A DNA stretch of 62,394 nucleotides from a virus. Lineage: Duplodnaviria; Caudoviricetes. Positions 10,363 to 58,189 of the stretch are shown here, piece by piece. The notes under the pieces were generated by a model that had not been told where the DNA came from, ran no database searches, and saw nothing but the letters and a program-made list of their open reading frames with translations. The stretch is taken from positions 1 through 62,394 of IMG/VR virus record IMGVR_UViG_3300036805_000178; one strand, written 5' to 3'. The first letter of the stretch is position 1. Every line of letters starts with the position of its first letter. The translations under genes were made by a program, and so were the position numbers.

Positions 10363-10544
10363 GGACCGTCCTCCTGTCAGGCCAGCTCCGCGGGATCCGG
10401 GCGGCACCGCGCTTACTTAACCGAATCTGAAACCTGTGCCGCATACTCAACTCCCCGGCAGGGGTGCCGCGCAAGTACCCGGAGGTAGCGAATAGGCACC
10501 GGGGCGCACTGCCCCTCAAGATCACCGTGCGGCAGCGTAGCCGG

Positions 10545-10799: not shown

Positions 10800-10902
10800 C
10801 GACTGTCTTCCTGTGCGTAGAATGGAACATAGCGGCCACGGGAGTCGGTAGGACGGCATCCCGTGACCTGACCCTCAACCTGACTTACCAGGAGTGAGAG
10901 CT

Positions 10903-11487
10903 ATGACCAAGACTAGCGCCGGCGACCGCACCGCCCTGTACAGGTTCTATGCCAGCGATGACGCGCTGCTGTACGTGGGTATCACCGAACGGCTCAGCCT
11001 GCGGTGGGAGGAACACGCCAGGGCGCAGACGTGGTGGCCGCAGGTTGATCACCAGACTGTGCAGTGGCTCCCCTCGCGCGAAAGAGCGTTTTCCGCCGAG
11101 AAAGATGCCATCGCTGCCGAGAATCCCGCGTTCAACATCGTCGGCGCTGCCCGTAAGGGATGCGTCCGCGATGAGAGAACCGGCTTCTATGTCGCCCCTA
11201 AGCGCGTTCCGCGTTTCCGCCCCCAGCACTACGACGTACTTCCTCTCATGTACCACGGCGACGGCTTGCAGTGGCCGCACGAGCGCGTGGCCCGCAAGAT
11301 CGAGGGGGCGATCATCTCGGGAGAGTTCCCGCCCGGCTCAAAGCTGCCGTCTCAGAGGCACATGGCAGACGAGGCGGGCGTGTCCGAGCACACCGTCAGC
11401 GCTGCCGTGAAGCTCCTCGCGGCCAGGGGCACCTTGTATACGCGGAGCAGGCTCGGAACGTTCGTTGCTGGGCGCGCAAGCGGGTAA
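10903..11487 (+). CDS. GIY-YIG-like domain fused to GntR wHTH
   Basis: ALYRFY...LLYVGIT...RWEEH...E...I...P.FN followed by ERVARKIEGAIISGEFPPGSKLPS. Confidence 0.85.
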   Translation: MTKTSAGDRTALYRFYASDDALLYVGITERLSLRWEEHARAQTWWPQVDHQTVQWLPSRERAFSAEKDAIAAENPAFNIVGAARKGCVRDERTGFYVAPKRVPRFRPQHYDVLPLMYHGDGLQWPHERVARKIEGAIISGEFPPGSKLPSQRHMADEAGVSEHTVSAAVKLLAARGTLYTRSRLGTFVAGRASG

Positions 11488-11820: not shown

Positions 11821-11872
11821 CCTGTATTCAGTGTGATATCGTCACGATGACAACAGGGAAGAAGTGAAAAGC

Positions 11873-12436
11873 ATGAGAAAGTCAGTCAAGATCGCAGGCG
11901 CCGCCGCCGGCGGCATCGTCACACTCGGCATCATCGGCGCAGTGGTGGGAGGCAGCGGATCAAACAGCCCCGCGGGCCCGGCTAGCCGCCCGGCCGTCGC
12001 TGCCACGCAGTACACCACGTTCTCCCCGGACGGAGCGCAGACCTCCAACAGCCCCGGTACTGCCGCTGCGGCCCCGCCGGCAACCACGGCCCCGCCGGCT
12101 CCGGCAGCGAGCACCGCCCCGGCGATGACCGGCAGCCAGCAGCAGGCCGTCGACGCCGCGCAGAGCTACCTGTCCCTGGGCTCGGGGTTCAGCAAGCAGG
12201 GGCTGATCGGCCAGCTCACGTCCAGCGCCGGCAACGGTTTCCAGCAGGCCGATGCCGAGTTTGCGGTCAGCTACCTGCACCCGGACTGGAACGCCCAGGC
12301 GGTGCAGGCCGCCAAGGGATATCTGGCCCTGGGCACGGGATTCAGCCGCAGCTCGCTGATCGACCAGCTGACCTCACCCTACGGCGGTCAGTTCACCGAA
12401 GCACAAGCCGAGTATGCCGTCGACAAGACGATGTAA
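11873..12436 (+). CDS. ltp: Ltp-family surface protein (putative superinfection exclusion)
   Basis: N-terminal TM segment and two Ltp repeats: AQSYL...FSKQGLIGQL...F...AEFAV and AKGYL...FSRSSLIDQL...FTEAQAEYAV. Confidence 0.85.
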   Translation: MRKSVKIAGAAAGGIVTLGIIGAVVGGSGSNSPAGPASRPAVAATQYTTFSPDGAQTSNSPGTAAAAPPATTAPPAPAASTAPAMTGSQQQAVDAAQSYLSLGSGFSKQGLIGQLTSSAGNGFQQADAEFAVSYLHPDWNAQAVQAAKGYLALGTGFSRSSLIDQLTSPYGGQFTEAQAEYAVDKTM

Positions 12437-12541: not shown

Positions 12542-12724
12542 ATGCCCCCCACGAGCCGCAACGTGCTGCTCGGCGTCCGCGTGCCGCCGGAGCTGAAGGA
12601 CGCCGTCCAGGCGTACGCGGACGCCCAGGGAATCTCACTCGCCGCCGCCGTGAACATCCTGCTGCGCCAGGCGCTGGGCGAATTCAGCCCCGCGGGCAGC
12701 ACGAAAGGTACAGGAAAACAGTGA
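12542..12724 (+). CDS. RHH/Arc-like regulator
   Basis: LGVRVPPELKDAVQAYADAQGISLAAAVNILLRQAL. Confidence 0.8.
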   Translation: MPPTSRNVLLGVRVPPELKDAVQAYADAQGISLAAAVNILLRQALGEFSPAGSTKGTGKQ

Positions 12725-13317
12725 AACGCACACGCATCCTCGCGGGCGCCGGCGCCGCAGTCACCGCCGCCGCAGCCCTCGCCGCGTGCAGCTCAGCCGG
12801 CACCGCGCGGCCTGCCGCCGCTACGGGCACGCCGGCCGCCGCGGTCGCACCGCCCGCCGCAACCGCGCCCGCCGCGGTTGCCGCCGTCCCCGGCACCAGC
12901 AATAACAAGTACGTCGCGGGGCCGTTCACCGTCACCCTCAAGGGCATCGAGCCGCTCCCGGCCGCGGACGACCTGACCAGCACAGCGGGAAACCCGGTCC
13001 CCGAAAGCTGCGCCGAGGTCACCGTCAAGAACACGTCCAACAGCTTCACCGGCTGGGCCGCACCGCACGTCGAGTTTGTGCGCGGTCACAGCATCAAGGG
13101 ACAGGTCCTTGAGACCGACCCCGCCGGCCCGCCCGTTGGCAGCGGCATGAACAGTACCGACAGCGACACCCTCGCCCCCGGTCAGTCCCAGGTCCTGTAC
13201 TCGTGCCCGCAGAACATCCCTGCCGGCACGTACGTCGAGGCGCAGCTGACCGAGGTCGACTACGGGGCACCCAACGTCGGCACCGCCAGCGGAGCCCGCA
13301 TCCAGCTGAAGTACTAG
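12721..13317 (+). CDS. Lipoprotein with beta-rich (Ig-like) domain
   Basis: Signal peptide with lipobox LAAC; AEVTVKNTS, TLAPGQS. Confidence 0.75.
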   Translation: MKRTRILAGAGAAVTAAAALAACSSAGTARPAAATGTPAAAVAPPAATAPAAVAAVPGTSNNKYVAGPFTVTLKGIEPLPAADDLTSTAGNPVPESCAEVTVKNTSNSFTGWAAPHVEFVRGHSIKGQVLETDPAGPPVGSGMNSTDSDTLAPGQSQVLYSCPQNIPAGTYVEAQLTEVDYGAPNVGTASGARIQLKY

Positions 13318-14075
13318 GCGGCCGACTCTGCCCCGCACTTGCAGTCGCTCTCGTAATGCCAGCACGGCACGCACACTGCCTCGACGTTGGCCATGAACGT
13401 GTCCAGGTACGGTGCGTCGCTGAGGACCTTGGTGATGTAGGCGACCAGGTCGCGTGCCGGTTTCTTCGGGTTCCCGTACTTGAAGTACAGGCCGAGCACC
13501 TCGCCGTCGGTGAGGTCGTCCGCTTCCTGCTGGCCGTGAATCCTGGCGACCGCTTCGCGAACTTCCGCGATCACTTCATCGGTAGTCCGTTTCGCGCGCG
13601 AGCCGGAGGCTTGCGCCCGTCGGGAGGCCAACTCTTGAGCCATCTCTTGATCTTCAACGTCTTCGGTGACTGTCTTAAGTTTTTTAGCGCCTGATTCACC
13701 GACGCCGGGACTACCGGCGCCTGGAAATCCGTCCTCGGTGGTTATCGGCGCCTCTGACCCGGCCTCCGTCTGCGGCTTGTCGTGAACCGTCACCGTCGTG
13801 TGCCAGTGACCCCGCAAGTCCTGATGCTTCCGCTTGGTCACGTACCCGAGGCTGATCAGCTCGTTGAGCGCGGTGCGGACGGCATCCCGGCCCTCGGGAT
13901 TGTCCTTGGCGAGGTCGGTCGTGGTGACGCGCCATCCCGGCGGAAGGCTGAGCAGGTGGTGGTGCAGGCCGCGCGCCCGGAAGCTGATCCGGGTGTCACG
14001 CGCCTCGGCGTTGCCGATGATCAAAAACTGCTGAGCGTGCCTGCTGCGCTCGATAACGATGCCGTCGTTGGCCAC
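13314..14075 (-). CDS. Replication initiator-like wHTH protein
   Basis: FLIIGNAEARDTRISFRARGL...LLSLPPGW...EGRDAVRTALNELISLGYV, typical phage/ICE rep N-terminus. Confidence 0.75.
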   Translation of the reverse strand: MANDGIVIERSRHAQQFLIIGNAEARDTRISFRARGLHHHLLSLPPGWRVTTTDLAKDNPEGRDAVRTALNELISLGYVTKRKHQDLRGHWHTTVTVHDKPQTEAGSEAPITTEDGFPGAGSPGVGESGAKKLKTVTEDVEDQEMAQELASRRAQASGSRAKRTTDEVIAEVREAVARIHGQQEADDLTDGEVLGLYFKYGNPKKPARDLVAYITKVLSDAPYLDTFMANVEAVCVPCWHYESDCKCGAESAA

Positions 14076-14312
14076 GGATGCTCCGATCGACTCAGGAGCG
14101 AGACCGCAAACCGCCGATGCTTCCGCGTGCCGTATGCCATTCCGGCAGCCATCGGGTTAGCATGTACGTGGAGATCGGTTCACGGGGTCCCGCTCATAAC
14201 GGGGACTGGTCGTGCGACGGGCCGGGTGCGCAAACACCCGGCTCTCGTCGTCTCTAGACGCTACTCCCCGGACCGCTCGAAACTCTGGCCGGCGCGCGCG
14301 GGATGCTCAGGA

Positions 14313-15164
14313 CTACAGACTCCCGGCACCCTGGGCGATCATCCGGTACTCGCTCGCTACGCGCTCAATAACTGCCGAACCCGCCGCGCCGTACACGGCA
14401 AGCTCCTCCAGCTCGCCGAACAGCTTGGAGTACTCGGCCACATCATGCGGGTCTGTGATGAACATGGTCCCCGTCCGGATGCCCACGATGACCGTCCGGC
14501 GGTCGTAGACCCAGAATCCGTGCGCGGGGAACACCGTGGCAGCTTGCGACTGGGAAATGATCCCCAGCTGGACGTTCGACCGGGTAGCGATGACCTCGGC
14601 TAGGTGGCCAAGCTGGCCGGTCATTACCTCCGGTGAGCCCGCCTGCCAGCGGAGCGCGCCCTCGGTCACAATGATCCTGAATGCGCGGTCCGAGTCGAGT
14701 GCATCGCCACGTTCCATCCGCTGCGCTACGAGCGCATCCACCTCGTCAGCAGCAATGTCACCGCCCTCTGCGAAGACCAGCCGGGCGTAGTCGGGCGTCT
14801 GCAGCAGGCCGGGGATCACGGCTGGCTGGAATCCGCAGACCTCGGCGGACGCCCTCTCGATCCGGGCGAAGCGCTCCTGCATCTTCACGGTGCCCCGGGA
14901 GATAACCGTCCGGGCCGGAATGGTCTCGGGGCGCAGATCCTTGACCGCCTGCAGTAGGTCGCGGCGAACCTCGGCGCCCGCCCGGTACAGCTTGCACAGC
15001 GCCCGGATGTCGTCATCCTTCGGGAGGAAGCGCCCGGCTTCTATTCGGGAGAGCTTGGGCTGGGAGAAGCCGGCCAGCTTGGCCGCCTGCACGCCGGACA
15101 GTCCGGTCTCTTCGCGCAGGCGGCGCAAGGTACTGGCTAGCCAGTCACGGCCTTCGTCAGGCAA
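14313..15164 (-). CDS. XRE HTH + DUF5753 (Scr1-like) regulator
   Basis: LRRLREETGLSG...KLSRIEAG; IPGLLQTPDYAR; VTEGALRW. Confidence 0.9.
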   Translation of the reverse strand: MPDEGRDWLASTLRRLREETGLSGVQAAKLAGFSQPKLSRIEAGRFLPKDDDIRALCKLYRAGAEVRRDLLQAVKDLRPETIPARTVISRGTVKMQERFARIERASAEVCGFQPAVIPGLLQTPDYARLVFAEGGDIAADEVDALVAQRMERGDALDSDRAFRIIVTEGALRWQAGSPEVMTGQLGHLAEVIATRSNVQLGIISQSQAATVFPAHGFWVYDRRTVIVGIRTGTMFITDPHDVAEYSKLFGELEELAVYGAAGSAVIERVASEYRMIAQGAGSL

Positions 15165-15693
15165 CCCGCCTCCCGGCGCGGTGATGATCTTGGTAGACGC
15201 CGAACGGTATCGCAGCGCGCCAGGCGGCAGCTGCAGCGGCACGGTACCGACTGAGCCCGCTCCGTTCAAACCCGAGGTAACTGCCGCCCGGGCCGTAGTG
15301 CATGACAGCAGCGTCCAAGCCGTCACTCAGCCAGAAGTCCCCGATGCCGTCGAGCTCGGCGGGCTGCGGCTGGTCGGCCAAGTCGAGGATGCGGATGTCC
15401 TCATACGCGAGGTTGTGTGCGTAGCCCCACTCGAACTCATATCGCAGGTAGTCGCTCAGTGGTGACCGGACCACGTGCACGCGGGATGTGGTCACGCCGC
15501 GGTCGAGGTCCGCCTGCAGCACCTTGTGCCATGCAGCCTTCCGCTCCATGTCGGGGCCGCTGTCTCCGCGCAGGTACCGCTGGTAGTCGCCGCCGTCGCT
15601 GCTCACGTCATAGCGGTCGAGCGTCTCAAGGCGGAACAGGGAACGCGCGGCTCCGTCGCAGAACCTGGCGAGCGCCGCCGGGTCAGTCTGCAC
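15157..15693 (-). CDS. DUF6879-family protein
   Basis: SLFRLETLDRY, RVHVVRSPLSDYLRYE, EDIRIL, DFWL. Confidence 0.8.
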   Translation of the reverse strand: MQTDPAALARFCDGAARSLFRLETLDRYDVSSDGGDYQRYLRGDSGPDMERKAAWHKVLQADLDRGVTTSRVHVVRSPLSDYLRYEFEWGYAHNLAYEDIRILDLADQPQPAELDGIGDFWLSDGLDAAVMHYGPGGSYLGFERSGLSRYRAAAAAAWRAAIPFGVYQDHHRAGRRVA

Positions 15694-15901
15694 GGGTTGC
15701 CACCTCCGGAAGGAGCTCTGCGGGGATCTCTACGAGAACCTCGTCGTCGCCGATCGGGGCCTGAGACAAAGCCCCGAAGTCGGTCACGCGCTTGCCGACG
15801 ACGAATACCGTCCCGTAGTTGCTGGTGTAGACAGCCGGGCAGGTGCGCCCGTCCGGGCAGTCGCCGCGGGCGAGGGTGAGCTTCACTTCGGGTTCTGGCA
15901 C
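15683..15901 (-). CDS. Small CxxGxxCP protein of the DUF6879 operon
   Basis: DCPDGRTCPAVY...FVVGK...EVLVEIPAELL. Confidence 0.8.
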   Translation of the reverse strand: MPEPEVKLTLARGDCPDGRTCPAVYTSNYGTVFVVGKRVTDFGALSQAPIGDDEVLVEIPAELLPEVATRAD

Positions 15902-15910
15902 GGGGTTCTC

Positions 15911-16053
15911 CTCTGGCTATGCACCGAGTATCCGACCCCATGCCAGAGGTAGTCAACGCCATGGGTGCATAGCCAGAGTCCGCGCTGGCTGCGCGAAGAG
16001 ATTCCCACGCCTGAAGGCTAACATTTGCTATGCACCGCTGGCCGGTGCATACT
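15911..16053. promoter_or_regulatory. Divergent control region with four TATGCACC boxes and a rightward promoter
   Basis: 15-bp IR 15911-15925/15964-15978; 9-bp IR 16029-16037/16043-16051 overlapping TTGCTA-N17-CATACT. Confidence 0.7.
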
Positions 16054-16103
16054 GACGGTGATGCAGCAATCCGGAACACCGGATCGCCGGAAGGGCGGGC
16101 TCC

Positions 16104-16304
16104 ATGTACGACGCGAGGCTGGACACCCGGATCACCGCAGGTGTCGACCACCGTCTTCGCATGCTGGCGCTGGCTGACGGGGTGCCGCTTAACCGCGTGC
16201 TCGTCAGGCTGCTGGACAAGGCGCTCCCGTCCGCTGACGAACTCGCCGCCCGCCTCGCCAAGGGGCCGCGTTCCGACACCGAGCCGATGGAGGCAGCGGC
16301 ATGA
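16104..16304 (+). CDS. RHH/CopG-like protein
   Basis: LDTRITAGVDHRLRMLALADGVPLNRVLVRLLDKAL. Confidence 0.7.
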   Translation: MYDARLDTRITAGVDHRLRMLALADGVPLNRVLVRLLDKALPSADELAARLAKGPRSDTEPMEAAA

Positions 16305-16468
16305 AGCTCAACCAGACCGAGGTCTGCGGCAACTGCGGCCACATCGGCTACGCGGGCAGCGCGCACACCTGCCGCCCGCACTAACCCGGACATGAAACAG
16401 CCCGCCGCGGTCTCAGCCACCGCGACGGGCTACGGAACCCCTGAAACCTCAAACCACCAGGAGCCCAG

Positions 16469-16768
16469 ATGCTGACCCTAACCCAACCAGCCACGACGGC
16501 AGCCATGAACCTCCGCAGTGACGCAATGAAGTTCTACGCGACGGGCAGCACGGCCGAGAGCCTGCGGGCCCGCGCCGGGAACCGGGTCGTCGTCCGGGCG
16601 CTCGCCGCCGCCGCGATGGTGTCCCCGGACGCCATGCGGGACACCGTCCTCGGGCTCGCTGACGGCATTGACGCGATCACCGCCGAAGGGCTGACCCGGG
16701 AGCAGTGCTACTTCCTGGCTCACCTGGACGAGACTCTGGGCCCGTGGCCGGGTGATCTGAGTGCTTAG
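16469..16768 (+). CDS. Hypothetical protein
   Basis: AGGAG RBS, ATG. Confidence 0.65.
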   Translation: MLTLTQPATTAAMNLRSDAMKFYATGSTAESLRARAGNRVVVRALAAAAMVSPDAMRDTVLGLADGIDAITAEGLTREQCYFLAHLDETLGPWPGDLSA

Positions 16769-16927
16769 GTTCGCCTCCCCGGTCACCGACCAGGAGCTGC
16801 AGGACTTCTGCGGCGTGCTCGACTCGGCCGCCCTCGCAGACCGGGCGGCGGGCGCGGAGCCTAACGAGGACATCATGACCGCCGGGGATGCCGCTGCGGC
16901 CGAGGTCGGCACGCGAAGGGGGCGACG

Positions 16928-17191
16928 GTGAAACTCCCCGAGGTCCCTTTGCCCGAGCCGGTCTTCATGATCACCCTGCACGACGGCAGTCCTGCGGTGC
17001 GCCGGATGCTGGCGGCGGCCCTCCGGTTCCTGCTGTGGATGGTCCCGTCGTGCGCCGCGGACTACACACTGGCGACCGCTGACGGCGGCCGTCATGCGCT
17101 GTGGCTGACCCTGGCCGCCGCCTTCACCGTGCTCGCGGCCGCTGTCCTGCTGGTCAACGTGGACGATGACAGCGACGGGGGGAAGCCGTGA
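16928..17191 (+). CDS. Small membrane protein
   Basis: Two hydrophobic segments. Confidence 0.6.
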   Translation: MKLPEVPLPEPVFMITLHDGSPAVRRMLAAALRFLLWMVPSCAADYTLATADGGRHALWLTLAAAFTVLAAAVLLVNVDDDSDGGKP

Positions 17192-17646
17192 GCCTCGTTC
17201 ATTCCCGCCGGTCCAACCCGCATCAGCTTGAGTGGAGCGCCGGCGCCGCCGGCCCGCTGATCGAGGCTGAGGACCGGATCGCCCTGACGTGGAAGGACCG
17301 GGGGCTGTGCGCCGAGGTCGGCCCGGACCTGTTCTTCCCGGAACGGGGAGACAATGTCGCCCGCGCCCGGTTGATCTGCCGCAGGTGCGAGGTCCGTGTT
17401 CAGTGCGTGTCGTACGCGCTGGGCAACGGGGAGCCGTGGGGTATCTGGGGCGGCCTGACCGAACGGGAACTGCGCGCTGAACGGGGCGCCCGCGAGGCCG
17501 GCGTAGTGCGGGCGCCCGCTGACATCCTCGCCGAGGCCGACGCCCGTTACCTCAAGCGCCGCGACCGTGCGGCACGGCAGCGCGACGCCCGGTACGCGGC
17601 TGAGCGGGCCGCCCGGGCCGGGAAGGCAAGGGGGCTGGCGGCGTGA
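17188..17646 (+). CDS. whiB: WhiB-family Fe-S transcription factor
   Basis: WKDRGLC...PDLFFP...ICRRCEVRVQC...GIWGGLTERE. Confidence 0.95.
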   Translation: MSLVHSRRSNPHQLEWSAGAAGPLIEAEDRIALTWKDRGLCAEVGPDLFFPERGDNVARARLICRRCEVRVQCVSYALGNGEPWGIWGGLTERELRAERGAREAGVVRAPADILAEADARYLKRRDRAARQRDARYAAERAARAGKARGLAA

Positions 17647-17885
17647 GCGAGTCAGTGCGCGAGCCGGAAGAAGTCGTGATGCCGCCCCGTGATGCCCGGT
17701 TCCTGAGTGCGGGCCTTGCCGGCGGGTTCGGCTTCGCCCTGCTCCTGACAACCTTCTTCAGTCCCGGCCCGAGCATCTGGGGCACCCTCGCCGCAGCGGC
17801 CGTGTCCGGCGTGATCATGCTCGCCGGCTTCCTCGTCTTCATCATCGCCCGCCAGACCCCGCCCGTCCCGGAGGAGCGTTCCTGA
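17643..17885 (+). CDS. Small two-TM membrane protein
   Basis: Two hydrophobic helices, coupled overlaps. Confidence 0.65.
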   Translation: MSESVREPEEVVMPPRDARFLSAGLAGGFGFALLLTTFFSPGPSIWGTLAAAAVSGVIMLAGFLVFIIARQTPPVPEERS

Positions 17886-18103
17886 TGACCGCCCGCGCCC
17901 TTGACCTCGAGGTGCTCCGCAACGGGAGACCTGCGGACACGTTCCGTGCCCACGGCGATCCCGAGGATGTCACCTGGCTTCAGGGGCGCTTGACTGGCTG
18001 GCTCGGGGCCCGCAAGTGGGACCGGGGACTGTGGGGCGGATTCGAGATCGTGGCGCGCGAGTCCGGGAAGTCACGGCAGCTCGCGAAGGTGAGGGCCGAG
18101 TAG
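17885..18103 (+). CDS. Hypothetical protein
   Basis: GGAG RBS, TGATG overlap. Confidence 0.6.
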   Translation: MTARALDLEVLRNGRPADTFRAHGDPEDVTWLQGRLTGWLGARKWDRGLWGGFEIVARESGKSRQLAKVRAE

Positions 18104-18387
18104 TGCCGCGCCGGGGTTCACGGGAAAAGCGGAACGCCGGCCACAAGGCGCGGCAGGCCGAGCTGTACGCCGCCGCGCAGGCCGACGACGTTGAGGCGCT
18201 CCGGGCGGCATTCGACTGGTTCCGGTCGTCGGCCGCGCTCCTGGCTCGCCGGCGTCCGCCGCGGCCCTTCGGCAAGGACGCGCACCGGCCCGTGGCAGCC
18301 AGTGTGATGCGCGAGATGGCGGCTGAGCTGGCGAGCGCCGCCCGGGCGATCGACCGGGGCGACTACGACCTGAAGGGAGCCGCGTGA
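18103..18387 (+). CDS. Hypothetical protein
   Basis: TAGTG overlap, in operon. Confidence 0.55.
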   Translation: MPRRGSREKRNAGHKARQAELYAAAQADDVEALRAAFDWFRSSAALLARRRPPRPFGKDAHRPVAASVMREMAAELASAARAIDRGDYDLKGAA

Positions 18388-18830
18388 TGGCGACGCTCAG
18401 TAAGAGGGAAGTGGAGGAAGGCAGCCTGCCGGAGATTCCGCAGGAGCCGGAAATGACTGCGCAGCCGCGCGCGCTCGCGCGTGCGAGTCTAACACTGCCC
18501 TCGCCGGCTTCCCTCGTCCCTGTAACGCAGCGTGCCCGCGCTGCCGGCATGGTTGCCGCTCGCGCAGCCGGCCAGGCGGCGGAGATCCTCGACCGGCCCG
18601 GCTCCCTCGTCCATGCACAGCCGCCCACCTTCGCCCGCGCCCGCGAACAGCACCATGAGGCCGCCGCCAGGCACAGCGCACCCTTCGTGCGGGGACTGCG
18701 GCTCGCCTGGGGCTACCTCCACCTGCTGCTCGTCAAGACCGTCCTCAACGGGCTCGAGTGGGTCACTGAGAACCCCGCGCGTTTCCTCGTCGCCGTGATC
18801 ATCGGCGCCGTCGTCTGGCTCTGGAGTTGA
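18387..18830 (+). CDS. Membrane protein (Spd-like)
   Basis: C-terminal TM segments; upstream of transfer genes. Confidence 0.6.
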   Translation: MATLSKREVEEGSLPEIPQEPEMTAQPRALARASLTLPSPASLVPVTQRARAAGMVAARAAGQAAEILDRPGSLVHAQPPTFARAREQHHEAAARHSAPFVRGLRLAWGYLHLLLVKTVLNGLEWVTENPARFLVAVIIGAVVWLWS

Positions 18831-18831
18831 C

Positions 18832-19257
18832 ATGAACCTTACCGTCGCCGAGCTGGGGGTTCTGCTCCTGGTGCTGTTCGGCTTGTTCCACTACCTCGGT
18901 GTCCTCGCCAAGACGCGCGCCGTGCTCGCCCTGCTCGCCGCGGCGGCGGTGGGCCTGACCGGCGTGATCGGGCACCTTGCCCGGAACATGGCCGACTGGG
19001 CGCAGCAGGCGGTCGGGAGCGTCACTACCTGGGCGTTCGGCGCGACCTTGTCCGCGGCCCTGTTCATCGTCCTGGTTGTGCTCCTGGTCCACGACCTGCA
19101 CCCGCGCAAGAACGCGTCCGGGCGCACCGGGTGGGTTGCGCTCGCGGTCGGGATCATGCTGGTCGCCGGCGTCTCCCAGTTCCCGGCGCTCGCCCCGGTC
19201 GTGAACGGGATCCGTTCCCTGCTGTCCGGTATCACCGGATTCGTCAACGGACTGTGA
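18832..19257 (+). CDS. Multi-TM membrane protein (Spd-like)
   Basis: Four hydrophobic segments; precedes traA/traB-like genes. Confidence 0.7.
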   Translation: MNLTVAELGVLLLVLFGLFHYLGVLAKTRAVLALLAAAAVGLTGVIGHLARNMADWAQQAVGSVTTWAFGATLSAALFIVLVVLLVHDLHPRKNASGRTGWVALAVGIMLVAGVSQFPALAPVVNGIRSLLSGITGFVNGL

Positions 19258-19264
19258 GACTGTC

Positions 19265-20410
19265 ATGGACCTGATCGCGCTGATCATCATCATCTATGCC
19301 GTCAAGACGGCCGTGGAAGACGCCCGGAAGGCGTGGCGCAAGTCCCGCAGCGCCTACATGGGAAGTGCCGCCCGCCGCTTCCCGGACGCCCCGAAGGGAC
19401 GCCGGGCGGCGTGGGCGGCCAGGCATGACCTCGGATACGCCTCCTCGCAGGTGCTGCAGGGTTTCCCGGCAGCCAGGCACGGGTTCGCCTCGGGATGGCA
19501 TGCCGGGCAAACCGAGAAGCACGAGCGGCGGGCAGCGCGGGAGCGGGCCAAGGCGGAGCACCTGGAGGCCCGCGCGAGGCTTGCCCCGGACATGGCTGAC
19601 TCCCGTGCCCGGCAGCAGGCAGCCGCCGAGCAGATCCGCACGTTCACCGCCACCCGGCCGCAGGCAGGCAGCGAAGGCAACGGGGAAGGCGGCACGCTGA
19701 CCTCGGACGACCCGGGCGAAGCCGGGCCGGAAGACGGGCGCACCTGGTCTTACACCTCCGCCGGCAACCCGCTGGCCTGGCCTTCCCGCAGTGAGCAGGA
19801 GGCACGGCACCAGGCCCGGTACTGGAGCACGACCGGCAAACACCAGCTCGTGCACGAGCACCGGGCCGGCGGCGGCCCCGGAACGGTCATCGGCTGCTAC
19901 CTCAACGGCGAGAACATCCAGCCGACTCCAGAACAGGCAGCCGCCTGGGATGCCGCGGCCGCCGAGACCAAGCAGCAGTACCAGCAGGACGGGCGGCTTC
20001 CTCCCGATGAGGGAGACCGCGAACAGGAGGCCCGGCAAACCGGGCAACTCGCAATCACCCAGGGAGAAACGATGGCATCAGGAACGGCAGATATCACCTA
20101 CGACGGGGTGCTGCAGAGCATGACCGCCGCGAAGGCAGGAGCCGAGAACCGGGCAGCCGAGCAGCAGCAGGCCAGCCGGCAGGCGTCCGCGATGTCCGAG
20201 ACGATGCAGTCCCTCGAGGTCGACCCGGGCACCCTGAGCGCGATGGCCGACCACCTCGACGCCCATGACGCTGCAGTCAAGGCGCAGCAACAGGTGCAGG
20301 AGACCGCTGAAGCCGTCGAAGCGTCGCTAAAGCGCGGCCACGCCGGGCTCAATGAGGCTCACCAGAACGCTCCGGTTTCCTCGGCCGATAAAACCTTCTA
20401 CGCGGGCTGA
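19265..20410 (+). CDS. TraA-like transfer accessory protein
   Basis: N-terminal TM; helical C-terminal domain ending HAGLNEAHQNAPVSSADKTFY as seen upstream of actinomycete traB genes (from memory). Confidence 0.55.
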   Translation: MDLIALIIIIYAVKTAVEDARKAWRKSRSAYMGSAARRFPDAPKGRRAAWAARHDLGYASSQVLQGFPAARHGFASGWHAGQTEKHERRAARERAKAEHLEARARLAPDMADSRARQQAAAEQIRTFTATRPQAGSEGNGEGGTLTSDDPGEAGPEDGRTWSYTSAGNPLAWPSRSEQEARHQARYWSTTGKHQLVHEHRAGGGPGTVIGCYLNGENIQPTPEQAAAWDAAAAETKQQYQQDGRLPPDEGDREQEARQTGQLAITQGETMASGTADITYDGVLQSMTAAKAGAENRAAEQQQASRQASAMSETMQSLEVDPGTLSAMADHLDAHDAAVKAQQQVQETAEAVEASLKRGHAGLNEAHQNAPVSSADKTFYAG

Positions 20411-20422
20411 AGAGGGCCAGCG

Positions 20423-21031
20423 ATGAACCAGCTCGCCGAGCCGCTGCCGTGGCGCAACCGCGTCACGGCAGCGGTCCGTGACCGCGCTGAGGCGGTACTG
20501 ATGCGTCTCGACGAGACCCGGATGAGCCGGGCTGATGCCGCCCGCTGGAAGTCCGCCCGGACTATGGCGGATCTCGGAGAGCTGTTCATCGCGTGGCTGA
20601 ACCGGGAAGTCGACTGGACTCCTGGTCACTGCGGAGGACCGTGCGACGAGACTCTCCCGCTGATCCCGGCTCTGACCGTGATCAACCGGGGCGGATTCGT
20701 CACCGACAACTCCCAGCTCGCGGAGACATGGGAAGGCCGAACCTGGAACACCGACGTTGACGGCTTCGCCACCGATGAGACCCTCGCCAAGATCCGTGCC
20801 GCGGCTGAGGGCACTGACCTGACCGTCCTCGCCTGCCGGGACCGCTACCACGAGCACCGTGGCAAATTCCGCTTCCAGCCGTGCCCCCGCCGGGACGTGA
20901 CGGACTTCTGGGCAGACGCCTGCCCGGACGCCGCCGACGAGCTCTGGGGCACGTGGTGGGTGTACATCGAGGATCCGCAGCCGGGACGCAACGACCTGCT
21001 GTGGCCGACCCTGGCCGCAGCACTCGGATAG
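20423..21031 (+). CDS. DUF6919-like protein
   Basis: W..A.T.ADLGEL..AWL....TPG...ET..LIP.L...NR.GFVT.NSQ; EDPQPGRND.LW. Confidence 0.65.
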   Translation: MNQLAEPLPWRNRVTAAVRDRAEAVLMRLDETRMSRADAARWKSARTMADLGELFIAWLNREVDWTPGHCGGPCDETLPLIPALTVINRGGFVTDNSQLAETWEGRTWNTDVDGFATDETLAKIRAAAEGTDLTVLACRDRYHEHRGKFRFQPCPRRDVTDFWADACPDAADELWGTWWVYIEDPQPGRNDLLWPTLAAALG

Positions 21032-21041
21032 GAGGAATGTC

Positions 21042-23078
21042 ATGCCGCGCCACCAGACGCGGGAGGTACCGCGCTGGCGGCGCGGCGGCCCCCCGCAGAA
21101 ACCACAGCAGGTCATCCAGGTCCGCGGGCGCCAGGCCCGCGCCCTGGTCCGCCAGATCGACCTGGGCGACAGGCAGGCGGTGCAGGCAGGCGGGCAGCCG
21201 AACGGGGCAGCCGCGGGCAATGACGTGCTCGCCCGCACTGGGGCGTGGCGCAACCGCCGCATGCTTCCCCCGTTCGCCTGGGGTGTCATGCTCGCCGTGC
21301 TCGGCGCCGTGCTCCGGGGTGTCCCGCACCCCGTGCTGTCCGGCATGCTCGCCAGCCTCGCCGTCCCCGCACTGATGATCCTGTTCACCCGGCACCTGTC
21401 TGCGTTCGCCCGCCGCTGGACCGACACGGCGGCGCTCGCCGCCTCGGTGTGGCTGCCCGTGCTCGCCGCCACCGGATTCCGCTCGCCTGTGCCCGCCCTG
21501 CTCGCCCTCACCTGGGTTCCGTTCGCGGCCGTCTGGGCGCGGCACTACCGGATCCGCCCGGAGGAAGCGAAGGCAGAGCAGGAAACCCGGGTCGATACGA
21601 CTTCCGACACTGCCGTGTGGGCGCGGCTCGCCGCCAAGCGCAAGTGGTCCGCCTGGCTCACCGACCCGGAAGTCATCCCGGGCGGGGTGAAGTACCGGAT
21701 CGAGATGGACGGCGTCGAAACCCATGTCGGCAACATCATGGCCGAGCCGCGTGCCATTGCGGCCGCCTACCGCAGCGCCCAGACCGAGGCGTACGTTGAG
21801 CCGCACCCGACCGGGATCGAGTCCAAGGGCACCTTCACCAAGCTCCGCGCCGGCACGCTGCAGGCCGCCGTTGAATGGGACGGCCGCGGCTTCACTGCTG
21901 ACGGGCTCGCCCGGGTAGCGCGGTTCGCCGACAGCCAGCCTGTGCGGATCCGCGCGTGGATACCCCGTGACGGGGCCCGCCACGGAATGGTTTCAGGCAC
22001 CATGGGCGCCGGGAAGTCGGCACTGCTTGACCTGCTGATCTGGCTCGCGCTCCGCTCGGCGGTCCCGGTTGTGCCGATCGTGCTGGACCCGCAGAACGGC
22101 CAGTCGCTGCCGCAATGGCGGGGCAAGGTTATTTACGCTGCCGGGGTTGACGAGTGCGTGCGGATGCGCCGCGCGCTGAACGCCGCGATGATGGACCGCT
22201 CCCGGCGCCTGGCGTCAATGACATGGGACGACGACGGCTTTAAGGCCAAGGGCATGCAGTTCTTCGACGCGCGCCTTTCCGGCCTGCCGATCGTCATGCC
22301 GATCACCGACGAGGCGCCCCTGCTCCTCAGTGGCGGGGAGAGCAAGAACCCGAAGCTCGCCGCGGAAATGACGAGCCTGACTGCCGATGCCGGCAAACTG
22401 GGCCGCAAGGCAGGGGAGAGCGAGTGGATTGTCACCCAGGTTCCCTCGCTGGCTGAGCTTGGCGGCGACCAGGCACTACGGGCCATGTTCGTCGGCGGCA
22501 GCGTTATCGGCCTCCGCTCTGGTGACCGGGTTTCCGGCGGGATGGTTGGCCTGCAAACAGACCCGTTCACGTTGCCGAAGTACTTCCCTGACGGTTCCCC
22601 CACGCAGGGCATCGGCTATGCGGCGACGATGGACAACCGGCAGGCCCCGATGCGGACCGACCTGGTGCCCTCCCGCATGCGCCACCAGGCCGTCACGGTG
22701 CCGCAGCTTGAGCCGGAGTTCCTTGAGGCGATGGACCGGGCGATGGGCACCCAGGGGATCCTCTTCCCGCCTGCCGCCGCCCCGGTGGTGCCTTCGCAGT
22801 CCGAGGCGCCCGCCGACGACGGCCCGGAAGGGCGCCGCTGCACCGACGCGGTCCTGCTGGTGCTGGCGGAAGCCGGCCGGGAACTGGACCGCGGCGAGAT
22901 CATCCAGTGGGCTGGCAACATCGCGGTCGACGGGTGGGGCCGGGCGAAGCCCTTCAGCATCAAGTCGGTCGGGAACGCGCTCAGGGACCTGACCGCGGCC
23001 GGGAGAGTCACCCGGGTTCGTGACGGGGTGTACCAGGCAGCGGAAAACTCCGAAACGATCATTAACGGGGACAAATGA
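21042..23078 (+). CDS. traB: FtsK/SpoIIIE-like TraB DNA translocase
   Basis: N-terminal TM bundle; Walker A GTMGAGKS; Walker B ITDEA; GRKAG...TQ.P; C-terminal wHTH-like domain. Confidence 0.8.
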   Translation: MPRHQTREVPRWRRGGPPQKPQQVIQVRGRQARALVRQIDLGDRQAVQAGGQPNGAAAGNDVLARTGAWRNRRMLPPFAWGVMLAVLGAVLRGVPHPVLSGMLASLAVPALMILFTRHLSAFARRWTDTAALAASVWLPVLAATGFRSPVPALLALTWVPFAAVWARHYRIRPEEAKAEQETRVDTTSDTAVWARLAAKRKWSAWLTDPEVIPGGVKYRIEMDGVETHVGNIMAEPRAIAAAYRSAQTEAYVEPHPTGIESKGTFTKLRAGTLQAAVEWDGRGFTADGLARVARFADSQPVRIRAWIPRDGARHGMVSGTMGAGKSALLDLLIWLALRSAVPVVPIVLDPQNGQSLPQWRGKVIYAAGVDECVRMRRALNAAMMDRSRRLASMTWDDDGFKAKGMQFFDARLSGLPIVMPITDEAPLLLSGGESKNPKLAAEMTSLTADAGKLGRKAGESEWIVTQVPSLAELGGDQALRAMFVGGSVIGLRSGDRVSGGMVGLQTDPFTLPKYFPDGSPTQGIGYAATMDNRQAPMRTDLVPSRMRHQAVTVPQLEPEFLEAMDRAMGTQGILFPPAAAPVVPSQSEAPADDGPEGRRCTDAVLLVLAEAGRELDRGEIIQWAGNIAVDGWGRAKPFSIKSVGNALRDLTAAGRVTRVRDGVYQAAENSETIINGDK

Positions 23079-24196
23079 TGGCTGGCATGCGAATTGCGCG
23101 TACCCGCCTCGGCGGCCTGGTGGCCGACAACCCGCTGCTCGCCGTTGTCGCCGCCATCGGCTTCTCGGTAAGCTTCCAGACCGTCGCGAAACTCGCCGTC
23201 CAGCACGGCCTGCCCGGCTGGCCGCCCCTGTACCCGATCGGAATCGACATCGGCATCCTCGCCCTCACCGCCGAGTCCCGCCTGATGCTCTCCGCCGGCC
23301 GCGGGGACTTCGTGCCGCGTTCCCTGGCATGGCTGCTGACCGCCTTCACCGTCTACGCGAACGTCCACGGCTCCCCGTCGTGGGACTGGCTCGGCCGCGG
23401 CATGCACGCGGTCATGCCGTGCCTGTGGGTGGTGTTCCTCGAGCTGACCCGCCGGCGTCTCGTCGCCGCCCGGCGCACCGACCTGATCCCCGCGTCCCGC
23501 TGGGCGGCCGCCCCGTTGCAGACGCCGCTGCTGTGGCAGCGGATGCGCCGTGACGGGATCACCGACTACCGGCTCGCACTCGAACTGGAACAGGCCCGCC
23601 TGCACGCGCGCGATCTCGTGCGCGCGGCCCCGCCTGAGCACCGGGCCGAGCGTTCGTCGCTGCTGTCCCGCCGGATCCGCACCGGGCGCCTGCCCGACGC
23701 GGTCCGCAAGGCCGTGCGCGAGTCCCTGAACAGCGAGTGGTCCGCAGGCTGGGAAGCCGATGTCGCGCACTGGGTAACCGCAGCCCTGGCAATGCCGGAG
23801 CACGTCGCGGCAAGCCTGGAGAACGCCCGCCGCCAAGCCCGCGAAACCGTCTCCGCGCTTACCCCGGAACCAGTGCCCGCGACTGCCCCGGCACCGCTCC
23901 CGGACCTGCCCGCGGGCACACCCGGGACTGCTGTCCGGGCACGCTCCGCGGCTGCCCCGAAGACCGCTCCCAAGCCTGCCCTCAAGCTCACCGCAGCCCG
24001 CTCCCGGGCCATGACCCCGGACCACCTCGCCGCCCATGCCTCGGCCATGATCGGCGAGTACGGGGAGACCGCCGTATCAATCAACCGGGTTAAGACGGAC
24101 CTGAGCGTGGGGACGGACAAGGCGAAGGAAGCACTGCGCATCGCCCGCGCCGACCGGGCCCGGGTTGTGACGCTGCCAGACCGGAAGCAGGCGTAA
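23075..24196 (+). CDS. DUF2637/Spd-like plasmid-spread membrane protein
   Basis: GFSVSFQTV..LA..HG...LYPIGID, TVYANV, H...P.LWV, D.IP..RW..AP; C-terminal HTH SINRVKTDLSVGTDKA. Confidence 0.75.
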   Translation: MMAGMRIARTRLGGLVADNPLLAVVAAIGFSVSFQTVAKLAVQHGLPGWPPLYPIGIDIGILALTAESRLMLSAGRGDFVPRSLAWLLTAFTVYANVHGSPSWDWLGRGMHAVMPCLWVVFLELTRRRLVAARRTDLIPASRWAAAPLQTPLLWQRMRRDGITDYRLALELEQARLHARDLVRAAPPEHRAERSSLLSRRIRTGRLPDAVRKAVRESLNSEWSAGWEADVAHWVTAALAMPEHVAASLENARRQARETVSALTPEPVPATAPAPLPDLPAGTPGTAVRARSAAAPKTAPKPALKLTAARSRAMTPDHLAAHASAMIGEYGETAVSINRVKTDLSVGTDKAKEALRIARADRARVVTLPDRKQA

Positions 24197-24397
24197 TTAC
24201 CGCCGCCCGCACTGAGGCCGCCTAGGTGTCCCCGGTACCTGCACTGCGGGGCTCCGGCCCAGGGTCTGCTTCTGCCCCCCGCGGCTTCGCAGCATCGTTT
24301 TCCGCAGGATCGTCACGGCCGGCTGCTGTCCTGTTGCTGTGGATCCGCTGCCATACGGGAAATCCGCCACAGCATGCCGCTGTGGAGAAACGGATCG

Positions 24398-25219
24398 CTA
24401 AGCAGCCTTTAGCTGCCGCCTTCTTCCGTCAGGGCGGGCGATGATCAGAGTGTGCTCTCGGGCAACCCGCCGTGCAGCGGGAACAATGCTGTCACTCTTG
24501 CGCCGGTTGCACTCAGGGTGCATCAGCTGGAGGTTCCACTCGTCATTCGGGCCGCCGCGCACTTCCGGGACGAGATGATCCACATGGTTGCCATCTGGGC
24601 CGCCAAGAGGAAGGCCGCATCCGCCGTGGTGGGTGTCGGGGCACAGTCCCACTTGGCGGATGTACAGGAGCCGGTGAATCCTGAGCCGTTTGCGAGCATA
24701 GCGACGAGCATTTCGCTCGCTGTTGTGGCGACGACAATACGCGACGCGGGAGATTGCGAACTCTTCACAATCGGGTCGTACGCACCTCCGGCCGTCGCGC
24801 ATCGTTTGAAGCCTTCTGGAAGCGCGCCGCTCCTCGGGAGTCATGCGGGGCTGACGGCGGCTGGGACGTCGGACTCTAAGAGAAGCTCTGGCCAGTGACC
24901 TGCACTCGGGATTACGTCTGCAGTACGCGGATCTCCGACCCACCTTTATCGACACCCCGCATCTTGCGCAAGATGCGGAGGCGCCTGGATCCCCGTGCCT
25001 TTTCCAGTACCTGTAGTGCTTCCGGCACCAGCTGCGGGCGCCACCAGGCTCGTTCGCCGTTCCGTCGCAACCCTCGACAGTGCACGGGCCAGAGTAAAAG
25101 ACACGAACCCCGCCCAGGGGGTCTCCGTGAAACCGCCAGCGCTGGTAGTGCAGGCTGCACCACCCGCGACATAGAACCCGGCTAGGGCAGTCCTCGACCG
25201 AACACGTACGATTCACCAT
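24398..25219 (-). CDS. HNH endonuclease with N-terminal Zn-ribbon repeats
   Basis: CSVEDC...RGWCSLHYQRW..HGDP and a second similar repeat; HVDHLVP...GG...NLQLMHPECN. Confidence 0.9.
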   Translation of the reverse strand: MVNRTCSVEDCPSRVLCRGWCSLHYQRWRFHGDPLGGVRVFYSGPCTVEGCDGTANEPGGARSWCRKHYRYWKRHGDPGASASCARCGVSIKVGRRSAYCRRNPECRSLARASLRVRRPSRRQPRMTPEERRASRRLQTMRDGRRCVRPDCEEFAISRVAYCRRHNSERNARRYARKRLRIHRLLYIRQVGLCPDTHHGGCGLPLGGPDGNHVDHLVPEVRGGPNDEWNLQLMHPECNRRKSDSIVPAARRVAREHTLIIARPDGRRRQLKAA

Positions 25220-25316
25220 GCTGGACCTCTTGTCAGGTTCGGCCACGCCCCGGGGTGTTAGCGCACCGCCGGGGCACCCTCTCTTTATATCGAACAGTTT
25301 AGCTGGAATTACCGTC

Positions 25317-25763
25317 TCAAGTTGCCCGATTCTCGGGTGGAGAGGCGTTCTCTTCCGCGGCGGGATCCTGCCAGTCCTTCCAGACCGGGCGCCCGTGACG
25401 CCGCCATACCTCTGCGAGGAATGGCAGGATCCCGGCGTACGGCCGCCGTCCGTCCTTATCCATGTGGAGCTTCACCCAGAGCGGGATACGGCGCAGTATC
25501 CCCAGGGCAACCAGGCCGAACAGTGCCACGTCAATCCACCCGGCCACTTGCGAGGTAAGCCGGCTGAACTGGAAAAACAGTGACAAGATGCTCGGGATCA
25601 TCGCGATCGACACCCGGATGGCGAAGTCGACTACAGTCCGGCCGATCGGGTTGGCCCACCACTTCGCCAGGTACGTATAGACGGCAGCCCACAGCGTTAC
25701 GGACACCACGCCGGCAATGAGCACCACCCTGAATGCCACCATCAGCGTCTGGTCCTGCGTCAT
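25317..25763 (-). CDS. Holin-like membrane protein
   Basis: Three TM; YTYLAKWWANPIGR; lysis cluster. Confidence 0.6.
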   Translation of the reverse strand: MTQDQTLMVAFRVVLIAGVVSVTLWAAVYTYLAKWWANPIGRTVVDFAIRVSIAMIPSILSLFFQFSRLTSQVAGWIDVALFGLVALGILRRIPLWVKLHMDKDGRRPYAGILPFLAEVWRRHGRPVWKDWQDPAAEENASPPENRAT

Positions 25764-26134
25764 TTCGGCTCGCCATCTTCGCAGACGCTTTCGCTCATCA
25801 TCTCCGCAGGGCTCGCCTCGCGGCGGGACTGCTTCCTTGCCTGGCGGCTGATCTGCTCGAATACGACCAGGCGCCAGAACACAGCGGCGCCGGCCAAGAA
25901 CAGGAAGGCGATCAGGATCCACGACCCGACCTCGCTGCCCAGCACCGACAGCCGGAAGAACGCGGCAAGCAGCAGCGGGGCCAGCGTCCCGATCAGGCAG
26001 ATGTCCTTGATGACCAGGGTGAGGCCGATCGGGTCACGCAAGCACGCCCCCCGGGTGAGCCGCGTGTAGTCGGCGGTGAACACCACCAGGCCGGCGACGA
26101 TGACAACGAGCGCTATTTTCAGTGCGAGAATCAA
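25760..26134 (-). CDS. Holin-like membrane protein (paralog of neighbour)
   Basis: Three TM; YTRLT...DPIG parallels YTYLA...NPIG. Confidence 0.6.
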   Translation of the reverse strand: MILALKIALVVIVAGLVVFTADYTRLTRGACLRDPIGLTLVIKDICLIGTLAPLLLAAFFRLSVLGSEVGSWILIAFLFLAGAAVFWRLVVFEQISRQARKQSRREASPAEMMSESVCEDGEPK

Positions 26135-58172: not shown

Positions 58173-58189
58173 AGGGGAGGTGAACCGAA

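Follow-up and report, generated by a model that had tools for sequence, protein, structure and literature searches.

Here, we describe a gene cassette that joins a predicted DNA translocase, related to the transfer proteins of actinomycete plasmids, to the genome of a tailed phage. The window, i.e. the whole stretch of DNA analysed here, is the complete IMG/VR virus record IMGVR_UViG_3300036805_000178 (62,394 bases, class linear, CheckV completeness about 50%), and the cassette lies in a rightward operon at 16104-24196. It consists of six genes, which encode a soluble protein of 72 amino acids (aa), three membrane proteins, a 678-aa Tra-type ATPase and a DUF2637 protein. The horizontal spread of phages and that of conjugative elements are, as a rule, regarded as taking different routes. 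The comparisons presented below suggest that the cassette is probably a TraB/Spd-like system for the cell-to-cell transfer of double-stranded DNA (dsDNA), with the phage replicon as its cargo. An initial annotation of this DNA had already proposed an actinomycete transfer-related module in a virion-encoding genome. At the level of sequence this proposal holds: the ATPase is kin to plasmid Tra proteins, and genes for the large terminase (TerL), portal, capsid and tape-measure proteins are present in the same record.

At a GC content of 63-73% across the whole window, a plain list of open reading frames (ORFs) is useless (164 ORFs of at least 50 aa in 21 kb), and genes were therefore called by third-position GC (GC3). 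The genes of the operon all lie on the + strand, and most of their junctions are overlaps of 1-8 nucleotides (nt) or gaps no longer than 13 nt; wider gaps are found at 16304/16469 (165 nt) and 18103/18384 (280 nt). They are listed below, with membrane segments predicted by a Kyte-Doolittle hydropathy scan and identities given for four related IMG/VR records that were examined whole (G001-G004).

16104-16304, + strand: first operon gene, 66 aa (GC3 0.82)
16469-17191, + strand: three small overlapping genes, 99, 56 and 87 aa, with 4-8-nt overlaps and one hydrophobic segment in the last
17188-17646, + strand: WhiB-like regulator, 152 aa (PF02467, 1.8e-20; phrog_472, 7.4e-24)
17643-17885, + strand: 80-aa protein with two hydrophobic segments by the hydropathy scan; no family match
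17885-18103, + strand: 72-aa soluble protein, the most conserved cassette member (54-82% identity in G001-G004)
18384-18830, + strand: 148-aa protein with a C-terminal membrane anchor (hydrophobic segment 130-148; 45-58% identity in G001-G004)
18832-19257, + strand: 141-aa polytopic membrane protein (hydrophobic residues 1-51, 63-92 and 99-124; 40-74% identity in G001-G004)
19265-20410, + strand: 381-aa protein with an N-terminal membrane anchor (hydrophobic segment 1-20) and a long, charged, low-complexity body (36-57% identity in G001-G004)
20423-21031, + strand: DUF6919 protein, 202 aa (PF21897, 4.4e-26)
21042-23078, + strand: predicted Tra-like dsDNA translocase, 678 aa, with four membrane helices, a beta domain, an FtsK-type ATPase and a winged helix
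23075-24196, + strand: DUF2637 membrane protein, 373 aa (PF10935, 1.5e-17), with a 4-nt overlap with the ATPase gene

The operon thus stands where the initial annotation had placed it, and so do its WhiB gene and several membrane proteins: besides WhiB, the DUF6919 protein, the ATPase and the DUF2637 protein, it encodes five small proteins with hydrophobic segments (16928-17191, 17643-17885, 18384-18830, 18832-19257 and 19265-20410). Two of the former labels are not supported. A ribbon-helix-helix (RHH) protein could not be verified in the operon: the 66-aa product of its first gene has no Pfam family at E<=0.01 (DUF6963 appears at 0.05 only, RHH_1 not at all), and RHH_1 gives a signal in the window just once, below threshold and beyond the operon, at 12569-12679. 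The 381-aa protein had been called TraA-like, and it matches nothing in Pfam (even at E<=10), PHROGs, NCBIfam, PADLOC or 72,556 plasmids, with the ESM Atlas uninformative. A third label, that of a DUF2637/Spd-like protein, survives in its first half: DUF2637 is clearly present, and homology to a characterised Spd protein is not found (pIJ101 SpdB, E 0.4). The 99-, 56- and 87-aa proteins have no family match and are not conserved in related contigs.

The 678-aa protein is indeed an FtsK-type ATPase with membrane and winged-helix parts, as had been proposed. Its Walker A motif reads GTMGAGKS, and in an alignment of 43 sequences G319, G324, K325 and E424 are invariant and D423 is nearly so. In the AlphaFold model (pLDDT 86), four helices near the N-terminus (72-169) are followed by a beta domain and a P-loop motor, and the C-terminus forms a winged helix at 600-666, which is built from three helices and two strands (block pLDDT 86-96) and whose region aligns with the C-termini of the two plasmid proteins introduced below. 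The association of the N-terminus with the membrane is a prediction from the model helices and from the hydrophobic segments of the hydropathy scan. A Foldseek search with the model returned the FtsK motor first (2.3e-13), followed by the conjugation coupling protein TcpA (1.6e-12) and by EccC (2.5e-11), and the family profile matched EssC/EccC (4nh0, 2.7e-8) and FtsK (5e-8) in the PDB. The Pfam family FtsK_SpoIIIE missed its cut-off (E 0.014, 15.3 bits against 24), and the assignment rests on profile and fold; single-sequence searches of PHROGs, NCBIfam and the PDB with the ATPase gave no match. Only one P-loop domain precedes the winged helix, and tandem ATPase domains of the EccC/EssC type were not seen.

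The protein belongs to a large family: among 1.84 billion representatives, 463 clusters are reached at E<=1e-30 and 1002 at E<=1e-10, and a set of 5.8 billion proteins contains 107 relatives at 27-73% identity. By tblastn it was found in 108 actinomycete plasmid records, in every one at less than 60% identity, and in none of 50,697 phage records, a set that includes pZL12, whose ATPase is too distant to be detected in this way. Profile comparisons with hhalign linked it strongly to a 774-aa protein of pSLE1 (99.6%, E 2.6e-24) and to a 'transfer protein' on a 22.9-kb Streptomyces plasmid (99.4%, E 1.3e-21) that also encodes GntR, DUF2637 and prim-pol proteins. The comparison with pIJ101 Tra gave moderate support (89.8%, E 1.8e-6, 258 columns). 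The order and the position of the domains agree as well: the P-loop region of pIJ101 Tra begins at residue 311 and its MarR-type winged helix spans 594-631, against 318 and 600-666 in the window ATPase. VWB gp25, Gilgamesh gp77, a 594-aa protein of pSLE1 and pZL12.72c were each considered as further ATPase homologues and ruled out by comparison.

A phylogeny against TraB, FtsK and EccC had been called for, and a maximum-likelihood tree of 33 ATPase domains (the duplicate row T786, identical to gen_L025, was dropped, and the root is a midpoint root only) resolves a 23-row clade with support of 98/97. This clade unites the window family with the ATPase of PhiNon1, the plasmid 'transfer protein', the pSLE1 protein and ten further viral or genomic relatives. 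On the other side, and outside the clade, fall FtsK, EccC domain 1 and two other paralogues of one Spirillospora genome; also outside, in unresolved positions and in several cases on long branches, lie pZL12.71c, a single viral row and another four paralogues from the Spirillospora genome. The grouping of the ATPase with transfer proteins of actinomycete plasmids and plasmid-phages, away from chromosomal FtsK and from EccC, is thus well supported by these sequences. Chromosomal FtsK/SpoIIIE and EccC/EssC share the fold and provide the best matches among solved structures, yet fall outside the supported clade. EccC has tandem ATPase domains and no winged helix, and FtsK is characterized by a long linker and a chromosomal context.

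Is the cassette a peculiarity of one record? Scans of IMG/VR found an ATPase relative in 12 other records, and the family profile matches all 13, the window included. Two of the four records examined whole are rated or proven complete. G001 (105 kb, CheckV 100% complete) carries TerL (phrog_38, 1.3e-98), portal and tape-measure genes; its structural genes have no match to those of the window at a tblastn threshold of 1e-5, and the window capsid protein finds nothing in it. Even so, G001 has the cassette in the same order, namely WhiB, genes of 72, 148, 141 and about 400 aa, the ATPase and DUF2637, at identities of 44-82% to the window (31% for DUF2637). G003 is a complete genome of 105.7 kb with verified 99-bp direct terminal repeats and a tyrosine integrase, and has the same cassette set at 40-63% identity. 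G002 and G004 are fragments carrying the same cassette, and the WhiB gene is kept at its head in all four records. The cassette is part of these phages and, as judged from these alignments, has been kept in at least three phage backbones whose structural genes are non-homologous, which argues that it moves between backbones. Within G003 we observed a local rearrangement of the cassette: the DUF6919 gene precedes the cassette WhiB gene instead of the ATPase gene, and the conserved 72-aa gene (21847-22059) lies on the strand opposite to the rest.

Searches of the 13 records recovered a large terminase from 9 (not from G004, G007, G008 or G010) and DUF2637 likewise from 9 (not from G002, G011, G012 or G013), always within 4 kb of the ATPase gene. 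Tyrosine integrases occur in five of the records and a serine recombinase in one, and ParB_N in four, two of these over the cut-off. The ATPase gene lies upstream of TerL by 12 kb in the window and by 1.4-9 kb in G001, G002, G003, G011 and G012, so related phages do keep the module at the same locus, a point that the initial annotation had left to be checked. Genome contigs with ATPase relatives stem from Streptosporangiaceae, Spirillospora and Actinomadura (with the exception of one 1.8-kb contig in a bin labelled Terracidiphilus), which points to a mycelial actinomycete as the host of the phage, without proving it.

The layout of the window is that of a known type of element. The Streptomyces plasmid-phage pZL12, or phage ZL12 (GQ919031; Zhong et al. 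2010, J Bacteriol 192:3747), reportedly forms plaques and virions, and to our knowledge it is the sole element with an experimental case for both a virion and a conjugal route. According to the passages available from PMC3583192, its conjugal transfer depends on a major tra gene as well as adjacent genes, and in those from PMC4487206 pSLE1 of S. leeuwenhoekii is homologous and syntenic to it. As in the window, each is a single replicon that holds virion genes together with an FtsK-like transfer locus, which lies upstream of the terminase. In pZL12 and pSLE1, GIY-YIG and rep-like genes come first; next is a GntR gene, which diverges from an operon encoding small and membrane proteins with an ATPase gene (725-774 aa) at its end, and then the terminase genes. 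pSLE1 shares with the window the rep-like helix-turn-helix (HTH) gene, the GIY-YIG gene, the GntR gene and a pre-terminase gene, all four at matching places. Unlike in the window, however, the structural genes of both are unrelated, their small cassette proteins cannot be aligned, and they possess ParAB and integrases, none of which was seen in the roughly 50% complete window; the pZL12 ATPase 71c is only remotely similar (79% in hhalign).

A further element of this type is PhiNon1 of Nonomuraea gerenzanensis (NZ_LT559120), whose ATPase is the best plasmid-database match of the window ATPase (29% identity, 79% coverage, 1e-33) and the sister of the window family in the tree (95/96). The genes before its ATPase gene encode 74, 150, 133 and 396 aa, as compared to 72, 148, 141 and 381 aa in the window, with the same membrane topologies, so that a five-gene order is kept with DUF2637 close by. 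An XRE regulator and an S-adenosylmethionine (SAM) methyltransferase lie to its left and lysis genes to its right. The differences are that only the ATPase and the XRE protein can be aligned and that DUF2637 lies upstream, not downstream. Passages of PMC5431353 describe circular and integrated forms of PhiNon1 and call it 'reminiscent of pZL12'; in these passages neither the cassette nor a transfer test is mentioned. The same rightward string that holds DUF2637 and the ATPase in PhiNon1 (locus L011) also contains an SsgA-family sporulation/division gene at 5736-6197. Through this gene, and through the WhiB gene that heads the cassette in the window and in G001-G004, the module is tied to hyphal development.

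The second frame of reference are the conjugative Streptomyces plasmids. In the model given in passages of PMC4447253, a single FtsK-like TraB moves unprocessed dsDNA plasmid after binding to 8-bp clt repeats, a GntR repressor restrains traB, and three to seven diverse spd genes, organized in operons with overlapping codons, direct the spread across cross-walls; pIJ101 Tra is presented there as a homologue that is sufficient for transfer. Like the window ATPase, pIJ101 Tra/KilA and pSVH1 TraB combine an FtsK-type motor with a C-terminal winged helix, at positions that agree for pIJ101 Tra. The tra/spd operons further resemble the window in their small overlapping membrane-protein genes and in the GntR regulators nearby, and the stop-to-start overlaps of the cassette genes, which are those of spd operons (PMC4447253), speak in favour of transfer. 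The window shows this trait with five hydrophobic-segment proteins plus DUF2637 and overlaps of 1-8 nt. Unlike these plasmids and the integrative and conjugative elements of actinomycetes (AICEs), its carrier is a phage of at least 62 kb rather than a plasmid of 9-30 kb or an element that is integrated and carries an integrase.

DUF2637 itself is common outside phages, being present in 315 actinomycete plasmid records. DUF2637 proteins are also encoded by the cultured Streptomyces phages VWB (gp24; L038, 6923-8239) and Gilgamesh (gp79; L039, 6860-8080). The large neighbour proteins in these two phages show no homology to the ATPase, so that DUF2637 can be present in a phage that lacks this Tra-like motor. 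pZL12.73c was considered as a relative and ruled out, as it has no similarity. A complex prediction with ATPase residues 60-560 and DUF2637 residues 1-200 yielded a score of 0.00 and, run without controls, is evidence neither way.

The candidate regulators of the operon, a rep-like gene and the divergent control region lie to the left of the operon:

10464-10799, + strand: small GntR-type winged-helix regulator, 111 aa (PF00392, 1.6e-13), similar to the pSLE1 GntR gene
10894-11487, + strand: 197-aa protein with a GIY-YIG-like N-terminus (weak, 5.5e-4) fused to a GntR helix-turn-helix (PF00392, 2.4e-15)
13314-14075, - strand: HTH protein and candidate replication initiator, 253 aa (PHROG HTH DNA-binding, 6.5e-17; replication initiation, 6.4e-12)
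14313-15326, - strand: XRE-family regulator with DUF5753 (DUF5753, 6.2e-41; HTH_31, 9.2e-18; phrog_9908, 1.1e-44)
15157-15693, - strand: DUF6879 protein, 178 aa (PF21806, 3.2e-38, 126 bits, at 15190-15672)
15683-15901, - strand: 72-aa protein without an assigned family, encoded first in the leftward unit (GC3 0.79)
15916-16053, no strand: divergent control region with candidate operators, a 10-bp motif GGTGCATAGC present three times exactly and once nearly so, on alternating strands

A rep-like gene and GntR regulators, much as first noted, both lie near the module. The 253-aa HTH protein shows 46% identity over 102 aa to the pSLE1 gene that adjoins the GIY-YIG and GntR genes (Pfam HTH_36 stays under its cut-off at 1.3e-4), and the 197-aa protein and the product of the pSLE1 GIY-YIG nuclease gene share 32.5% identity over 160 aa. 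The trio that was said to diverge from the operon is real as well, and all three of its genes lie on the - strand. Its DUF6879 protein scores 0.96 in the ESM Atlas, with 30 of 30 matches in DUF6879 clusters; its 72-aa leftward protein has no Pfam match at E<=10 and no DUF397 match. The ORF of the XRE-DUF5753 protein overlaps the DUF6879 gene by about 170 nt at its 5' end. As the HTH begins only at residue 62, the true start probably lies downstream of that of the longest ORF, near 15180. Gene callers that maximise ORF length hide the DUF6879 gene behind this long 5' extension. While the GntR-domain genes sit about 5 kb upstream of the operon start, the XRE-DUF5753 and DUF6879 genes are directly divergent from it.

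In the gap between the two units, GGTGCATAGC forms the sole non-random repeat cluster of our scan. Its exact copies occur solely at 15916, 15964 and 16027 in the window, with a copy of two mismatches at 16044, and it does not occur in 57 other loci. A promoter-like site (15956-15927, - strand) lies between the first two copies. The motif is probably an operator specific to this phage, though it might also serve as the transfer site.

We propose the following mechanism, for a carrier that would be a temperate or plasmid-like tailed phage of a mycelial actinomycete. The rightward operon would be held off by repressors bound to the four-copy operator in the divergent gap, with the XRE-DUF5753 protein, the GntR proteins and the small first operon gene as candidates. 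On expression, the 678-aa protein would form a membrane-anchored FtsK-like ring, whose C-terminal winged helix would select a site on a putative circular phage replicon; a stable circular state of this phage is itself putative. The ATPase would then pump unprocessed dsDNA into a touching hypha or across septal cross-walls, and DUF2637 together with the small membrane proteins may take the part that, by analogy, Spd proteins have for plasmids. Virions would thus serve long-range spread and the pump a virion-independent spread within and between mycelia.

Several observations weigh against this proposal. Experimental backing exists for pIJ101 Tra and, by report, for the pZL12 tra gene only, and it is to these two that the links of the ATPase are the weaker ones: the hhalign comparison with pZL12.71c is weak (79%, E 1.6e-5) and this protein sits outside the supported clade on a long branch, while the strongly related plasmid proteins are called 'transfer protein' by annotation only. 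DUF2637 finds no similarity to pIJ101 SpdB (E 0.4), and none of pIJ101 SpdA, SpdB and KilB contains DUF2637 or any other Pfam family; this comparison covered the pIJ101 proteins. In 72,556 plasmids nothing matches the 72-, 141- and 381-aa cassette proteins, and the 72-aa protein is also without a family match. A clt-like array of 8-bp direct repeats was not found in or after the ATPase gene by a k-mer cluster scan and a repeat search, and the only non-random repeat, placed as it is in a promoter gap, has the look of an operator. In a kil-kor pair the GntR gene would adjoin the ATPase gene, whereas here the distance is 5 kb. Finally, neither an integrase nor ParB is present in the half genome of the window, nor, at the thresholds used, in G001, which is rated complete.

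Could the pump serve vertical inheritance instead? A septal FtsK/SpoIIIE-like device might clear or move plasmid-state copies of the prophage across closing sporulation or vegetative septa and so keep the element in spores and compartments. An FtsK-like motor, a WhiB developmental-type regulator at the cassette head, the SsgA gene in the equivalent PhiNon1 operon and the ParB-like genes in four of the 13 related records (two over the cut-off) would all fit such a function. The ATPase, however, groups with plasmid transfer proteins and away from chromosomal FtsK, and the Streptomyces plasmid machinery is itself reported to act at cross-walls within conjugative spread, as far as the passages of PMC4447253 describe it. 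We therefore regard this explanation as unlikely in its own right; it overlaps with transfer rather than replacing it.

It is less probable still, and in our view improbable, that the cassette acts on foreign DNA, be it in superinfection exclusion, in defence against phages or plasmids, or in the entry of the phage's own genome through a membrane ATPase complex. Its early or lysogeny-side location next to an Ltp-type exclusion lipoprotein (PF07553, 5.2e-31) and methyltransferases would be in line with this, as would the HerA/FtsK-type ATPases of defence complexes among the lower Foldseek matches. These HerA structures, however, rank far under FtsK and TcpA, and the closest sequence relatives of the ATPase are plasmid transfer proteins. 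PADLOC reports no defence system on the window cassette; it gives only a P-loop-level match for the ATPase (mad8, 6.7e-4) and nothing for the other cassette proteins.

A further possibility is that a foreign element, either an AICE or a plasmid fragment, was inserted in the phage, or that the assembly is chimeric, and that the module is not a working part of the phage. The abundance of ATPase relatives (108 records) and of DUF2637 (315 records) on plasmids could be taken in its favour, as could the occurrence of the cassette with non-homologous structural modules and hence its mobility between backbones. Yet no tyrosine recombinase (PF00589) or serine recombinase (PF07508) matches in the window, the 62,394 bases contain no tRNA genes, and exact direct repeats flanking the module are absent. 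Sites of att type bounding the module had been suggested as a check, and only imperfect repeats were found, at the chance level expected in GC-rich DNA. For lack of recombinase, tRNA and exact flanking direct repeats, the module is, by its sequence, not a separate inserted AICE. Nor is the assembly chimeric at the module, judging from its two flanks, since both are colinear with the independent complete genome G003 (w_1611, w_3754, w_9586 and w_10464 on the left; w_31672, w_37988 and w_34985 on the right). The position upstream of the terminase, shared by G001, G002, G003, G011 and G012, and a GC content that is even across the module borders point in the same direction, and an insert or a chimera is very improbable. 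The label of a 'phage-AICE hybrid' was wrong: with its tra operon upstream of the terminase, the window matches in layout the plasmid-phage type of pZL12, pSLE1 and PhiNon1. Equally remote is a type VII-like export of the helical 381-aa protein, or of other small proteins of the cassette, by an ATPase resembling EssC/EccC: EssC/EccC is the best PDB match of the family profile and EccC is among the Foldseek matches, but the single ATPase domain followed by a winged helix, the place of EccC domain 1 outside the supported clade and the 381-aa protein, which is without any Pfam family at E<=10 and hence of no WXG100-type family, stand against it.

The genes around the module place the operon in its phage context. 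The record is a fragment of a larger phage genome, because its left end cuts a cytosine methylase gene and its right end the tape-measure gene. The right arm is a tailed-phage morphogenesis block, and the features flanking the module are:

11864-12436: lipoprotein with two Ltp repeats (PF07553, 5.2e-31)
25760-26134: holin-like gene (5.3e-5, under the cut-off)
27127-28095: 322-aa gene, no family match
35523-37241: large terminase (phrog_2, 5.9e-35)
38709-40109: portal
43838-46081: head-morphogenesis protein, 747 aa
50782-51693: major head protein (phrog_1650, 2e-71)
58184-62392: tape-measure gene, cut by the window end

The module had been placed between an immunity region and the lysis and head genes. 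Head and tail genes do lie to its right; the lysis genes are only weakly supported, as the holin-like match is sub-cut-off and the 322-aa gene has no family. Lipoproteins of the Ltp type mediate superinfection exclusion in temperate phages, and the gene at 11864-12436 hints at a temperate lifestyle. The C-terminal third of the 747-aa head-morphogenesis protein matches a PHROG labelled ADP-ribosyltransferase (phrog_3895, 2.5e-10), and the protein may be a virion-carried enzyme. The window has two GIY-YIG paralogues, the GntR-fused one at 10894-11487 and a second at 37458-37958, placed like a homing endonuclease between the terminase and portal genes and encoded on the opposite strand; both match the same genes in G001, G002 and pSLE1. 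Between the DUF2637 gene and the holin-like gene, a stretch of about 1.5 kb (24197-25759) has poor coding potential and a lower GC content (0.64), and it contains a 27-nt inverted repeat at 25358-25437 with no Rfam match. Indeed, Rfam has no match anywhere in the window, and a scan of the window for promoters and terminators found no more sites than in shuffled sequence.

What do these observations add to the known picture? Plasmid-phages of the Streptomyces type that carry a transfer locus have been known from publications since 2010, so the kind as such is not novel, and the present work is a comparative-genomic extension of it, drawn from sequence comparison. Conjugation functions are rare in phage-plasmids, according to passages of PMC10879196. 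A literature search, with subscription journals mostly outside its coverage, returned no description of this cassette in phages. Beyond the literature searched go the six-gene cassette across at least three backbones, its presence in a complete genome with terminal repeats, and the large ATPase family. The cassette occupies a fixed place in several unrelated phage backbones.

Should the cassette function in the way proposed here, models of phage spread, host range and gene flow in Streptomyces-like soil bacteria would change, and PhiNon1 and pSLE1 would provide cultivable test beds. More tentatively, and with more doubt than expectation, we speculate that the six-gene cassette is a common, exchangeable module of large tailed phages of mycelial actinomycetes that gives them a virion-free spread of naked dsDNA via hyphal contacts and cross-walls. 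If so, this virion-free route might serve during the infection of a compartmented mycelium as well as in lysogens, and dual transmission would be a regular viral strategy in filamentous bacteria rather than the oddity of one plasmid.

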